A program made the translations under genes and the position numbers. Positions 1-33,649 of a stretch of 33,649 nt of DNA are shown piece after piece; the stretch's first letter is position 1, and each line of letters starts with the position of its first letter. The notes beneath the pieces are model-generated. The model made no database searches and was not told where the DNA came from. It saw only the letters and a list, made by a program, of their open reading frames with translations. The DNA comes from Escherichia coli (lineage in GTDB: Bacteria; Pseudomonadota; Gammaproteobacteria; Enterobacterales; Enterobacteriaceae): NCBI RefSeq assembly GCF_003334255.1, contig NZ_QOWU01000057.1, one strand, 5' to 3'.

Positions 1-1288
<1,288 letters not shown>

Positions 1289-9220: not shown

Positions 9221-10468
9221 TTAGCCAAATTTAGGTAACACGTTAAAGACGTTGCCGAACCAGCACAAAATCACGGTTATACCAAAGAGAATGACAATCG
9301 CCGGAATAAGATTGCCGCCCCAGACCGTGAACATCTGATTGGGAAACTTCTTGCGAGCTTTGATTGCAAGCACTGCGGGAATAATGACCGCCCAGATGGT
9401 GGCGCACAGCCCGGCACCGCCGATCCCGTAAATAAAGCCGTTCGGGAAGATCAGATACAACAACGCAGGTGGCAGGAAGGTTAACAGCACGGTTTTGAAA
9501 CGCCCGCCGTGGGAGTTATCAATCTTAAACAGGTCCGCCAGATAATCGAACAACCCCAGCGTGACACCAAAGAACGAACTGGCAACAGCTAAGTTAGAGA
9601 ACACCAGCAGGCAAAACTCGATAATGCCGTGCTGTTTGGTGCCGAGGAACGATTTCACCAGCGAATCAACGTTGCCGCCTGAGGAGATTATCGCCTTAAA
9701 GCTTTCGCGCGGAATATTCCCCATCGTGCAATAGAGCCAGAAGAGATAAATCACCAGCGCCAGCAGCGAACCAAATACCACGCTTTTGATTAACTTATCT
9801 TTGCGTTTTCCATAGCAAATAATCAGGCTGGGAATATTGCCGTGGAAACCAAATGACGCCAGACACACCGGCAAAGCCATAAAGATATACGGGAAGTAAG
9901 ACGTTCCCGCAGTGGTGCTGGTGGCATCGCGCAGGATGGAGTAATCGACCTGGAAGAAGAAAGAACCAAACACGATCACAAAGGAGATAATCTTCAGCCC
10001 GAGGAACAATGAGGTAATGCGACTGGCGGCTAACGAACTTATCCACAATACGCTGGCAACGAAAATGGCTGTGCAGATCCCGACAATACGTGGATTAGCG
10101 TGATAGCCCAAATTCATTGATATCGTTTCACTAATGATCGCACCATTAGCAGAGATATAGGCATAAGTGAGGATATAGAGAACGAAGGCAACGGTAATAC
10201 CGCTGATAATGTTCCAGGTGTTACCGATTAAATCTTTGGTGATGGTGTTAAAACTGGAGCCGACAGGATAATTTAAATTTGCTTCTAATAACAATAACCC
10301 GGAATGAAGCATTGAAAACCAGGCAATGATAAGGATAAAGGCACCCCAGAAAAACCAGGCACCGGCAAGATCAACAGGTAAAGCAAACATACCTCCACCA
10401 ATTACTGTACCTGCTATAACCATAACACCCCAAAATGCAGAGTGCTTTTTTTCAGCTTGATCAGTCAT
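9221..10468 (-). CDS. tnaB: TnaB, low-affinity tryptophan permease (415 aa)
   Basis: 415-aa membrane ORF, ATG at 10468; directly downstream of tnaA. Confidence 0.93.
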   Translation of the reverse strand: MTDQAEKKHSAFWGVMVIAGTVIGGGMFALPVDLAGAWFFWGAFILIIAWFSMLHSGLLLLEANLNYPVGSSFNTITKDLIGNTWNIISGITVAFVLYILTYAYISANGAIISETISMNLGYHANPRIVGICTAIFVASVLWISSLAASRITSLFLGLKIISFVIVFGSFFFQVDYSILRDATSTTAGTSYFPYIFMALPVCLASFGFHGNIPSLIICYGKRKDKLIKSVVFGSLLALVIYLFWLYCTMGNIPRESFKAIISSGGNVDSLVKSFLGTKQHGIIEFCLLVFSNLAVASSFFGVTLGLFDYLADLFKIDNSHGGRFKTVLLTFLPPALLYLIFPNGFIYGIGGAGLCATIWAVIIPAVLAIKARKKFPNQMFTVWGGNLIPAIVILFGITVILCWFGNVFNVLPKFG

Positions 10469-10558: not shown

Positions 10559-11974
10559 TTAAACTTCTTTCAGTTTTGCGGTGAAGTGACGCAATACTTT
10601 TGGTTCGTAGGTAAAGGTTAATCCTTTAATATTCGCCGCGTTCTCTTTCACATGTTTAAAGGCTTCAATAATGAAGTCCATATGTGTTTGAGTATATGTT
10701 GCGCGCGGAATGGTTAAACGCAGCAGTTCAGCCGGGCATGGCAGTTGTTTACCGGTTTTCGGATCGCGGCCTAACAGGAAAGAGCCAATTTCTACCGCAC
10801 GGATACCGGCGACTTTATACAGCTCGCACGCCAGCGCCTGTGCCGGGAACTGGTCTGCCGGGATATGCGGCAGCAGTTTACCGGCATCAACGAATGCCGC
10901 GTGACCGCCTGCCTGCTGGCAGACAACGCCAATCTCTTCCAGACCATCGACCAGATACTGTACCTGCGCGATACGATAAGCCAGCCAGTCGAGATTCATG
11001 CCGTCATACAGACCTACCGCCAGACGCTCCATCGCGCCGCCTTCCAGGCCGCCATATGTCGGGAAGCCTTCCTGCACCACGCAAAGGGTTCTGCACTCGG
11101 TGTACACATCAAAGAAGCTGTCGTCTTTCATGCACAGCAGGCCGCCCATCGGCACCATCGCATCTTTCTTGGCGGACATCGCCAGCATATCGGCATATTT
11201 GTAGGTTTCGCGGGTGATCTGCTCGATGGTCCAGTCTTTGTATTCTGCTTCACGCTGCTTGATGAAATAGGCGTTTTCAGCAAAGCGCGCGGAGTCCATT
11301 ACCACCGGAATATCGTATTTCTTCGCGATGCTGTACATCGCTTTTAAGTTTGCCAGTGAAACCGGCTGACCACCTGCAGAGTTACTGGTGATGGTTGCAA
11401 CGATATACGGCACGTTATTCGGACCAACTTCTTCAATACCGCGTTCTAATCCCTCAAGGTCAAAGTTGCCTTTAAAGTCGTAACGCACGCCCGTATCGAA
11501 GGCTTCTTTGATATAGACGTTACGCACGGTACAGCCGTTGATCTGGCTATGGCCCTGCGTGGTATCAAAGAAATAGTTAGAGAACGCCACCATTTTGCTG
11601 CGATCCAGGCCTTTTTCCTGCTCGCGTTTTTTAATCAGTACCGGAATATAGATTTGCTCTGCGCCACGGCCCTGGTGAGTCGGAATGGTGTATTGATAAC
11701 CAAAGATATTTTTCACTGACTCGGCTAACGCATAGTAGCTACGACTGCCGCTGTAAGCTTCGTCGCCGCGCATCATCGCAGCCTGCATGCTCTGCGTCAC
11801 CGCCCCGGTGCCGCTGTCGGTCAGTAAATCGATAAACACATCTTCGCTATCCAGCAGGAACGGGTTCATACCGGATTTAATAATTGCCTCTTCACGATAA
11901 GCGCGAGTGGTACGTTTTACTGGCTCAATAACACGAATGCGGAACGGTTCAGGGAGATGTTTAAAGTTTTCCAT
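10559..11974 (-). CDS. tnaA: TnaA, tryptophanase (tryptophan indole-lyase), PLP-dependent (471 aa)
   Basis: ORF 10559..11989 trimmed to ATG at 11974 ([18 protein letters not shown]…), AAGGAT Shine-Dalgarno upstream; PLP-lysine region [12 protein letters not shown] present. Confidence 0.96.
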
Positions 11975-12194
11975 TACATAATCCTTCATTTATTTTAATT
12001 ACAGTGATCCCTGTGAATATTACATCTGCTATACCGATTAATTCGCCAGATATATATGCAAGCACCATCATTTACTAAAACAAGTAAATAAACGAGAGAT
12101 GACCTTTGCAAAAGGCAAAATTAAGATATAGCAAACAAATAGATCACATTGAATCTAATCGGTTTGGCTCTGGTGATGGCTACAGAAGGGCAAA

Positions 12195-12269
12195 TCAAGG
12201 GCGGTGATCGACAATTTTGTTGTCAATATTGAACCATTTTGAGGTCACACATATATGTAAGATATTCAT
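12195..12269 (-). CDS. tnaC: TnaC (TnaL), 24-residue tryptophanase leader peptide MNILHICVTSKWFNIDNKIVDHRP
   Basis: Reverse complement of 12195..12269 translated by hand gives the 24-aa leader with Trp12 and C-terminal Pro24 followed by TGA; about 220-nt spacer to tnaA. Confidence 0.9.
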   Translation of the reverse strand: MNILHICVTSKWFNIDNKIVDHRP

Positions 12270-12344
12270 AATGCACTTATCCTCGCAAGACACGAGGCTA
12301 CATTATTACACTCAGAGTTTTTGTCTATTCTGAAATTGTTTAAA

Positions 12345-12360
12345 TGTGAATCGAATCACA
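12345..12360. promoter_or_regulatory. cAMP-CRP binding site of the tna promoter (TGTGA-N6-TCACA)
   Basis: Perfect TGTGAatcgaaTCACA palindrome about 80 bp upstream of the tnaC start, consistent with a class I CRP site for catabolite-repressed tna. Confidence 0.65.
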
Positions 12361-12511
12361 ATCGTTCGGGGAGCAATATTAAATGCTTTTTTTAAAGATT
12401 ATAAATTACGTAAGAATTTTAATGTTTAAAAAAAGGGTTGAGGAATAACAGGAGTGGTAACAATGAAGCGAAGCCGCATCTGACAGTCAGAATGCGGCTT
12501 CGTAAGCGCGG

Positions 12512-13876
12512 TTACTTACCAATACAGAAGCTGGAGAAAATCCGCCCCAGCAGGTCGTCTGAAGTAAATTCCCCGGTGATTTCGCTTAAGTTCTGCTGTG
12601 CCAGACGCAACTCTTCCGCCAGCAGTTCACCTGCCCAGGCTCCCAACAGTTGCGCTTTGCCCTGTTGTAGATGTTCCGCTGCCTGTTCCAGCGCCTGTAG
12701 GTGGCGACGACGCGCCAGGAAGCCGCCTTCCATGTTGGTGTCAAAGCCCATGCTCTGTTTGAGATGGTTACGCAGCACGTCCACGCCTTCACCAGTCCTT
12801 GCCGAGAGACGAATTAACGCGTGACCGTTCACTTCACTCATTCCCAGCGTTTCGCCGGTGATATCGGCTTTATTGCGCACCACGGTGATCGGCAGTTTCG
12901 CTGGCAGACGGGCAATAAATTCCGGCCAGATCTCTGCCGGATCCACGGCGTCTGTTGTGGTGCCATCGACCATAAACAGCACGCGGTCGGCCTGTTCAAT
13001 TTCCTGCCACGCGCGCTCGATACCAATACGTTCTACTTCGTCACTGGCTTCACGTAGCCCGGCGGTATCGATGATATGCAGCGGCATTCCGTCAATGTGG
13101 ATATGCTCACGCAGCACGTCACGCGTAGTTCCGGCGATATCGGTTACGATTGCCGCTTCACGCCCCGCCAGCGCGTTTAACAGGCTCGATTTACCGGCGT
13201 TAGGACGTCCGGCAATCACCACTTTCATCCCTTCGCGCAACAAACTACCCTGACGTGCTTCAGCACGCACTGCATCAAGATCGGCAATAACGTCATTGAG
13301 CTGGGCTTCAATTTTTCCGTCGGAGAGGAAATCGATCTCTTCATCGGGGAAATCAATTGCCGCTTCGACGTAAATGCGCAAGTGGGTGAGGGCTTCTACC
13401 AGATGATTAACCCGTGCGGAGAATGCGCCTTGCAGCGAGTTAAGTGCCGAACGGGCCGCCTGTTCCGAACTGGCGTCGATAAGATCGGCAATCGCCTCGG
13501 CCTGGGCTAAGTCAAGTTTATCGTTAAGAAACGCGCGTTCGGAAAACTCACCAGGGCGAGCAATCCGCAGGCCGGGAATGGTCAGAATGCGTTTTAACAG
13601 CAGGTCGAGGATCACCGGACCGCCATGACCTTGCAGTTCCAGCACATCTTCGCCGGTGAACGAGTTCGGGCCAGGGAACCATAGCGCAATCCCCTGATCG
13701 AGCACGCTGCCGTCGGCGTCTTTAAACGGAAGATAATCGGCGTAGCGCGGCTTAGGCAGTTTACCCAGCACGGTTTCGGCAACTTCACGGGCTTTGAAGC
13801 CGGAGATGCGCAGGATGCCAACGCCGCCACGTCCCGGAGGCGTGGCCTGGGCTACGATAGTGTCATTATCGCTCAT
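12512..13876 (-). CDS. mnmE: MnmE (TrmE), tRNA modification GTPase (454 aa)
   Basis: 454-aa ORF, ATG at 13876; G1 motif [12 protein letters not shown]; C-terminal CIGK; K-12 synteny downstream of yidC. Confidence 0.95.
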
Positions 13877-16974: not shown

Positions 16975-18378
16975 GTGTCACTTTCGCTTTGGCAGCAGTG
17001 TCTTGCCCGATTGCAGGATGAGTTACCAGCCACAGAATTCAGTATGTGGATACGCCCATTGCAGGCGGAACTGAGCGATAACACGCTGGCCCTGTACGCG
17101 CCAAACCGTTTTGTCCTCGATTGGGTACGGGACAAGTACCTTAATAATATCAATGGACTGCTAACCAGTTTCTGCGGAGCGGATGCCCCACAGCTGCGTT
17201 TTGAAGTCGGCACCAAACCGGTGACGCAAACGCCACAAGCGGCAGTGACGAGCAACGTCGCGGCCCCTGCACAGGTGGCGCAAACGCAGCCGCAACGTGC
17301 TGCGCCTTCTACGCGCTCAGGTTGGGATAACGTCCCGGCCCCGGCAGAACCGACCTATCGTTCTAACGTAAACGTCAAACACACGTTTGATAACTTCGTT
17401 GAAGGTAAATCTAACCAACTGGCGCGCGCGGCGGCTCGCCAGGTGGCGGATAACCCTGGCGGTGCCTATAACCCGTTGTTCCTTTATGGCGGCACGGGTC
17501 TGGGTAAAACTCACCTGCTGCATGCGGTGGGTAACGGCATTATGGCGCGCAAGCCGAATGCCAAAGTGGTTTATATGCACTCCGAGCGCTTTGTTCAGGA
17601 CATGGTTAAAGCCCTGCAAAACAACGCGATCGAAGAGTTTAAACGCTACTACCGTTCCGTAGATGCACTGCTGATCGACGATATTCAGTTTTTTGCTAAT
17701 AAAGAACGATCTCAGGAAGAGTTTTTCCACACCTTCAACGCCCTGCTGGAAGGTAATCAACAGATCATTCTCACCTCGGATCGCTATCCGAAAGAGATCA
17801 ACGGCGTTGAGGATCGTTTGAAATCCCGCTTCGGTTGGGGACTGACTGTGGCGATCGAACCGCCAGAGCTGGAAACCCGTGTGGCGATCCTGATGAAAAA
17901 GGCCGACGAAAACGACATTCGTTTGCCGGGCGAAGTGGCGTTCTTTATCGCCAAGCGTCTACGATCTAACGTACGTGAGCTGGAAGGGGCGCTGAACCGC
18001 GTCATTGCCAATGCCAACTTTACCGGACGGGCGATCACCATCGACTTCGTGCGTGAGGCGCTGCGCGACTTGCTGGCATTGCAGGAAAAACTGGTCACCA
18101 TCGACAATATTCAGAAGACGGTGGCGGAGTACTACAAGATCAAAGTCGCGGATCTCCTTTCCAAGCGTCGATCCCGCTCGGTGGCGCGTCCGCGCCAGAT
18201 GGCGATGGCGCTGGCGAAAGAGCTGACTAACCACAGTCTGCCGGAGATTGGCGATGCGTTTGGTGGCCGTGACCACACGACGGTGCTTCATGCCTGCCGT
18301 AAGATCGAGCAGTTGCGTGAAGAGAGCCACGATATCAAAGAAGATTTTTCAAATTTAATCAGAACATTGTCATCGTAA
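16975..18378 (+). CDS. dnaA: DnaA, chromosomal replication initiator protein (467 aa)
   Basis: ORF 16963..18378 trimmed to the GTG at 16975 ([17 protein letters not shown]…); Walker [12 protein letters not shown]; C-terminal DnaA-box-binding domain. Confidence 0.97.
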
Positions 18379-23020: not shown

Positions 23021-23049
23021 GCCTGATGCGCTACGCTTATCAGGCCTAC
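23021..23049. repeat. REP (repetitive extragenic palindromic) element, first of a BIME-like pair downstream of gyrB
   Basis: GCCTGATGCGCTACGCTTATCAGGCCTAC is an imperfect palindrome matching the E. coli REP family consensus as I recall it. Confidence 0.65.
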
Positions 23050-23084
23050 GAAAATCTTGCAATGTATTGAATTTTCATGATTTT

Positions 23085-33178: not shown

Positions 33179-33280
33179 TACATCGTAGCCGATGAGGACG
33201 CGCCTGATGGGTGTTCTGGCTACCTGACCTGTCCATTGTGGAAGGTCTTACATTCTCGCTGATTTCAGGAGCTATTGATT

Positions 33281-33577
33281 ATGCGTAACTTTGATTTATC
33301 CCCGCTTTACCGTTCTGCTATTGGATTTGACCGTTTGTTTAACCACTTAGAAAACAACCAGAGCCAGAGTAATGGCGGCTACCCTCCGTATAACGTTGAA
33401 CTGGTAGACGAAAACCATTACCGCATTGCTATCGCTGTGGCTGGTTTTGCTGAGAGCGAACTGGAAATTACCGCCCAGGATAATCTGCTGGTGGTGAAAG
33501 GTGCTCACGCCGACGAACAAAAAGAGCGCACCTATCTGTACCAGGGCATCGCTGAACGCAACTTTGAACGCAGGTAA
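33281..33577 (+). pseudogene. ibpA: ibpA (small heat-shock protein IbpA) truncated after codon 97 of 137 by IS1; fused reading frame adds Arg and stops at TAA 33575..33577 inside the IS1 end
   Basis: N-terminus [68 protein letters not shown]… matches IbpA up to …GIAERNFER, then the sequence switches to the IS1 terminus GGTAATGACTCC at 33573. Confidence 0.85.
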
Positions 33578-33649
33578 TGACTCCAACTTATTGATAGTGT
33601 TTTATGTTCAGATAATGCCCGATGACTTTGTCATGCAGCTCCACCGATT
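33573..33649 (-). mobile_element. insB: IS1 right-end fragment in inverted orientation (terminal inverted repeat at 33573..33595, insB 3' end on - strand 33588..33649); element body lies to the right of the window
   Basis: Exact reverse complement of window positions 1..77; begins GGTAATGACTCCAACTTATTGAT (IS1 terminal repeat as I recall it). Confidence 0.85.

Follow-up and report, generated by a model that had tools for sequence, protein, structure and literature searches.

Sequence identity to K-12 points to a canonical regulatory leader of the tnaCAB (tryptophanase) operon in an IS1-bounded Escherichia coli contig

The genes of the tnaCAB operon and their control elements are all read on the minus strand of the window, by which we mean the whole stretch of 33,649 nucleotides of Escherichia coli DNA that was analysed. 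On the reverse complement of positions 11900-12520 the elements follow one another in the order end of mnmE, imperfect hairpin, AT-rich region, CRP palindrome, tnaC, spacer, tnaA and tnaB, and the interval on which this study is focused, 11975-12360, begins with the first spacer base adjoining tnaA and ends where the CRP site ends on its outer side. The GC content of the tna intergenic region is 35%, as compared with 51.5% for the window. The features of the locus are listed below from upstream to downstream in the direction of transcription.

12512: mnmE stop, the upstream limit of the intergenic region
12342-12363, minus strand: 22-mer around the CRP site, GATTGTGATTCGATTCACATTT
12345-12360, minus strand: CRP-cAMP binding site TGTGATTCGATTCACA (TGTGA-TTCGAT-TCACA), a perfect TGTGA-N6-TCACA
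12322-12327, minus strand: -35 element TAGACA, placed from the published start site
12300-12305, minus strand: -10 element TAATGT, placed from the published start site
12293, minus strand: transcription start +1 (G), at -24 from the tnaC ATG (12269) according to PMC2760140, +/-1 by counting convention
12281-12284, minus strand: Shine-Dalgarno sequence of tnaC, GAGG
12195-12269, minus strand: tnaC, 24 codons plus TGA, product MNILHICVTSKWFNIDNKIVDHRP
12234-12236, minus strand: Trp12 codon TGG
12222-12224, minus strand: Asp16 codon GAC
12213-12215, minus strand: Ile19 codon ATT
12198-12200, minus strand: Pro24 codon CCT, followed directly by TGA
12195-12197, minus strand: tnaC stop codon TGA
12195-12203, minus strand: boxA-like CGCCCTTGA, overlapping tnaC codons 23-24 and the stop codon
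12165-12213, minus strand: C-rich, G-poor tract, predicted rut region, covering the tnaC end and the first ~30 nt of the spacer
12156-12169, minus strand: predicted Spot 42 pairing site AGCCAAACCGATTA
11975-12194, minus strand: spacer between the tnaC stop and the tnaA ATG, 220 nt in length
11982-11986, minus strand: ribosome-binding site of tnaA, AAGGA
10559-11974, minus strand: tnaA, tryptophanase, 471 aa, intact, start codon ATG 11972-11974
9221-10468, minus strand: tnaB, low-affinity tryptophan permease, 415 aa, intact

A reading of the DNA letters with their open reading frames, made without database searches and referred to here as the sequence-only reading, had proposed a 24-codon tnaC with Trp12 and a terminal Pro24-TGA, and exactly such a frame was found at 12195-12269. 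Its product scored 44.3 bits (E = 1.1e-11) against TIGR02616 (tnaC_leader), for which the cut-off is 23.55 bits; the curated NCBIfam equivalog cut-offs were exceeded by tnaC, tnaA and tnaB alike. The peptide has the same sequence as the full-length TnaC chain in PDB 6i0y, and its residues 5-24 match 4uy8 query-wide, both entries being structures of stalled ribosomes with the TnaC peptide. Residues W12, D16, I19 and P24 are critical for the tryptophan-dependent arrest, which also requires an unchanged spacing from Trp to Pro and Pro as the last codon (PMC3299997, PMC10941005). All residues required of a tnaC-type leader, namely Trp12, Asp16, Ile19 and Pro24, were found in place, with Pro as the last residue before the stop.

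The perfect CRP site proposed from the letters is likewise present, and it is the single occurrence of TGTGA-N6-TCACA in the 33.6-kb window. Dinucleotide-preserving shuffles were used to estimate the chance rate of the pattern; 0.02 occurrences were expected, and any match at all was obtained in 2 of 100 shuffles. For the start site of tnaC, PMC2760140 gives -24 from the start codon, both after Deeley 1982 and by its own mapping, and from this +1 the leader transcript before the tnaA ATG measures 319 nt. The -35 and -10 elements are separated by 16 nt. A generic promoter and terminator scan reported nothing on the minus strand and missed the tna promoter because its -10 agrees with the consensus at only 3 of 6 positions, a poor fit that is consistent with an activator-dependent promoter. 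The scan gave one match on the plus strand, which was discarded as below chance (1 found, 2.8 expected). By our count the centre of the CRP site lies ~59.5 bp upstream of +1, 2 bp away from the -61.5 typical of class I promoters; the offset may be due to the start-site convention. The tnaC promoter has been given as an example of a class I Crp promoter (PMC5957442), and activation by cAMP-CRP together with glucose repression of tna has been described (PMC8429421).

Just past the mnmE stop, an imperfect 32-nt palindrome without a T-run, GAAGCCGCATTCTGACTGTCAGATGCGGCTTC, was observed at 12469-12500 on the minus strand. Possible readings are a terminator of mnmE or a REP-like element.

The spacer between tnaC and tnaA, which the sequence-only reading had put at roughly 220 nt, is exactly 220 nt long and 100% identical to that of K-12, so that the long untranslated spacer required of such a leader is there. 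The stretch CGCCCTTGA at 12195-12203, which we take to be the one named boxA after Konan & Yanofsky 2000 (J Bacteriol 182:3981), is also identical to its K-12 counterpart. The predicted rut tract stands out by base composition, with C:G = 11:5 per 30-nt window at 12165-12213, compared with 1-5 C and 5-8 G farther downstream. Published work places the rut site next to the tnaC stop codon (PMC8429421, PMC10941005), and the position of the C-rich tract, as judged from composition, matches it; the predicted rut tract and the boxA-like sequence lie at the tnaC stop in a stretch that is the same as in K-12, where rut was mapped (PMC8429421). A ribosome stalled on the stop codon would be predicted to cover this tract.

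The spacer also contains a predicted pairing site for the small RNA Spot 42. The Spot 42 sequence used was 100% identical to the annotated spot 42 RNA gene, and the pairing of AGCCAAACCGATTA with 15 of its nucleotides, TAATCGGATTTGGCT, gave -18.6 kcal/mol, a value equalled by 1 of 1000 shuffled leaders; this 15-nt segment is the one needed for repression (PMC5748587). An unconstrained duplex of full-length Spot 42 with the leader was set aside as uninformative, as 54 of 300 shuffles were as good as its -53 kcal/mol.

Both structural genes downstream of the leader are intact. Against TIGR02617, tnaA scored 1010 bits (cut-off 825.8), and against NF007235, tnaB scored 926.7 bits (cut-off 497). 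The amino-acid sequence of TnaA is that of K-12, its 8 nucleotide differences being synonymous, and TnaB differs from K-12 by two conservative substitutions only (L143I and S185T), the tnaB nucleotide sequence being identical to tnaB as annotated in many E. coli. The program-made list of open reading frames starts tnaA at an in-frame ATG at 11989 (476 aa), which differs from the annotated start. An overlooked frameshift or premature stop in tnaA or tnaB had been named as what would speak against a functional operon; both frames are full-length without indels relative to K-12, and neither the open reading frames nor the K-12 alignment revealed a frameshift, stop or insertion anywhere in tnaCAB.

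The alignment of the leader to K-12 that had been suggested as a check was carried out with megablast, and 621 of 621 bases, from the mnmE stop through the promoter, tnaC and the spacer to the start of tnaA, were identical to E. coli K-12 MG1655. The same 621-base region is present in 5420 of 5426 complete E. coli genomes and is also 100.0% identical in C600, ATCC 8739 and many other E. coli. When 8.6 kb were compared directly with MG1655, the two sequences differed by 19 substitutions, without a single indel; every one of these falls within tnaA or tnaB, and the leader is free of them. With the K-12 tnaCAB leader the window shares the TnaC peptide, the CRP site, the 220-nt spacer, the Spot 42 site and the boxA-like sequence, and it departs from K-12 tnaCAB only by those substitutions. 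Many E. coli genomes that carry annotations for tnaC, tnaA and tnaB share the 3421 bases of tnaCAB at 100% identity, and in the closest genome, E. coli B-1109, none of the three genes bears a pseudogene flag. [quoted passage not shown] Nothing in the sequence speaks against this reading. The element is already known and sequence-identical to the type example of the tnaC leader family, and the proposal that it is the complete leader of an inducible, catabolite-repressed indole operon is supported, as far as sequence allows, by the K-12 identity and the intact tnaCAB.

Natural variation was analysed in an alignment of ten leaders, consisting of the window and nine E. coli leaders taken at descending ranks of identity (100% to 94.5%). 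None of the 16 positions of the CRP site is variable. Of the 75 positions of the promoter and 5' UTR, 12 vary, sparing the whole -35 and T1, A2 and T6 of the -10. In tnaC 6 of 75 positions vary and none of these changes the peptide, since the same protein accession, WP_001364348.1, is common to all nine comparison genomes. A single variable position was found in the first 50 nt of the spacer, and none in the last 47 nt before tnaA; over the whole spacer the count is 27 of 220, with a cluster at 12022-12143, and no variation touches the Spot 42 site. The pattern agrees with the functional map of the leader, the distal spacer varying most. Leaders from other E. coli lineages (O157:H7, O111 and phylogroup B2/D-type alleles) have the same TnaC, CRP site and architecture, with 94.5-97% identity over 621 bases; their differences concern the surroundings of the -10, the distal part of the spacer and synonymous positions of tnaC. 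The tnaC stop is TAA and not TGA (position 12196) in four of the ten leaders. Both release factor 1 and release factor 2 recognise UAA. According to a title cited in PMC10941005, TnaC arrest preferentially inhibits RF2.

In approximately 790 of the 5420 E. coli genomes, including O157:H7, a gene for a type III effector of the ShET2/EspL2 family lies between mnmE and tna; it is absent from the window, and in the O157:H7 example it is frameshifted. In the genomes with this island, homology to the window restarts within 0-2 bp of the CRP site on its outer side (insertion point ~12361), and the island is thus a natural deletion analysis that marks the upstream boundary of the control region. The palindrome at 12469-12500 is kept in the genomes of the ten-leader alignment that are without the island.

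The attenuation mechanism of tna has been described (PMC12360218, PMC8429421, PMC3299997, PMC10941005), and by way of the sequence identity we infer from this K-12 work how the present leader would operate. CRP-cAMP bound at 12345-12360, ~60 bp upstream of +1 at 12293, would activate the promoter with its weak -10, and because initiation would depend on CRP-cAMP, the operon would be off in glucose. The 319-nt leader transcript would then be translated to yield the 24-residue TnaC. When free tryptophan is lacking, release factor 2 would end translation at the UGA and the ribosome would depart, leaving rut and boxA exposed, so that Rho could load and terminate transcription within the 220-nt spacer before tnaA. 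When tryptophan is present, the nascent TnaC, with Trp12, Asp16, Ile19 and Pro24, would form a tryptophan-binding pocket in the exit tunnel, and tryptophan-bound TnaC would block hydrolysis of TnaC-tRNA(Pro), stalling the ribosome at the stop codon; the stalled ribosome would mask the rut site, and RNA polymerase would read on into tnaA and tnaB. A third and minor layer would be added by Spot 42, which may pair with the spacer to give a catabolite-linked post-transcriptional repression (PMC5748587).

The ornithine-sensing speF leader (speFL), mgtL and the corA leader are likewise Rho attenuators that depend on an upstream ORF (PMC12360218). In the literature, the logic shared with speFL-type leaders is that a small molecule stalls the ribosome on the leader ORF and thereby controls the access of Rho to rut (PMC12360218), whereas the speFL, mgtL and corA leaders differ from tna in peptide, ligand and downstream genes.

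From this locus one would expect an indole-positive strain in which tryptophan induces and glucose represses in the normal way, a predicted phenotype that is of use in biochemical typing and in the reading of indole signalling in the strain. In K-12, tryptophan induces about 20-fold (PMC3299997). Beyond annotation, the significance of the intact leader is small.

The ends of the window concern the identity of the host. The same IS1 terminus (GGTAATGACTCCAACTTATTGAT...) occupies positions 1-77 and 33573-33649, the two copies being inverted relative to each other, which looks like the pattern usually left when a short-read assembly breaks at a repeat. The 33.5-kb segment bracketed by the inverted IS1 copies runs from yieL to a truncated ibpA and includes dnaA (near the replication origin). 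Judged against B-1109, the left-hand IS1 is inserted 15 nt short of the bglH end (window 78-92), and the right-hand IS1 cuts ibpA to leave a 98-residue product. Neither insertion is present in B-1109, the closest complete relative. Together with the lack of the ibpA junction in the complete E. coli genomes, this indicates that IS1 is active in the lineage, and other genes may be disrupted.

The sequence-only reading had raised a Shigella-like, IS1-rich host, in which tna is often lost. The IS1 part of this suggestion stood, with termini at both ends of the window, and the Shigella part was not borne out. A Shigella or enteroinvasive lineage with tna unusually retained is improbable, although several observations lend it some weight: none of the 5426 complete E. 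coli genomes has the ibpA::IS1 junction, an IbpA truncated in exactly this way is found on only 4 contigs in a large assembly collection (including GCA_965136505.1 and SRR10357257), and insertion-sequence damage to tna in indole-negative Shigella has been documented (Rezwan et al. 2004, cited in PMC8795385 and PMC8537960). However, window 78-25000 aligned with the human isolate E. coli B-1109 at 46014 bits, from which only ~2-3 mismatches in 24.9 kb were estimated, with ZF31 and ZF34, both from swine, almost as similar. An ancestral insertion of a major Shigella clone would also be expected on far more than 4 contigs, and the window contains no virulence-plasmid or Shigella marker. If such a host were true, the intact tna leader would be a notable retention. 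By these comparisons, in which the comparison genomes are all E. coli, the host looks like an ordinary E. coli with active IS1 and not a classical Shigella clone. Tentatively, it might further be an ordinary lineage in early IS1 expansion, with private insertions in ibpA and the end of bglH and with tna untouched so far, a view that we regard as possible but doubtful.

For an ordinary E. coli host with a canonical leader, an intact locus could nevertheless be silent, the strain being indole-negative or misregulated through defects elsewhere (e.g. in crp, cya, rho or tryptophan uptake) or through rearrangement of the 33.5-kb segment. The trans-acting genes crp, cya, rho, prfB and nusB are located outside the window, and the inverted IS1 pair could mediate inversion of the segment that it brackets; the inverted termini at the window ends and the two insertions missing from the closest complete relative both favour this explanation. 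Against it, no feature within the 33.6 kb affects tna, the closest IS1 ends being >9 kb and >21 kb distant, and otherwise the window seems to be collinear with ordinary E. coli at ~99.99% identity, as estimated from the bit score. Global regulators such as crp or rho are, in addition, rarely lost, and their loss is costly. A silent locus is thus considered highly improbable.

That chance alone, and no function, accounts for the short ORF and the palindrome in this AT-rich stretch between genes was rejected as a practically negligible alternative, because, although short ORFs are frequent in sequence of 35% GC and the promoter scan was blank on the minus strand, the region is base for base the experimentally dissected K-12 leader, the ORF lies above the curated tnaC cut-off, the CRP pattern is rare (0.02 expected), and E. 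coli variation spares exactly the CRP site and the TnaC peptide.

In other E. coli genomes, IS1 was observed at no fewer than four, that is at least 4, different sites in the tna control region, which is untouched in the window. IS1 lies 52 nt before the tnaA ATG in strain E70 (equivalent to window 12026), 26 nt upstream of the CRP site in strain S171-1 (equivalent to 12386) and 53 nt upstream of it in strain 162.2 (equivalent to 12413); in K-12 AB1157 it lies in tnaA codon 4 (equivalent to 11964), with tnaA and the 5' part of tnaB deleted. The exact E70-type spacer junction was found in E70 alone, in a search output consisting mostly of generic IS1 matches. The AT-rich tna control region (35% GC) appears to be a recurrent IS1 target.

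An Rfam scan of the whole window yielded three matches, AsdA, ROSE_2 and ES036, none of them inside 11975-12360. Ahead of ibpA lies an intact ROSE_2 RNA thermometer (100.4 bits; feature block 33215-33577). AsdA, the antisense RNA of the dnaA mRNA, lies at 17485-17565 on the minus strand (101.9 bits), and the small RNA ES036 at 23042-23084 on the minus strand (44.8 bits), both above the gathering score; these two are expected for the corresponding E. coli region.
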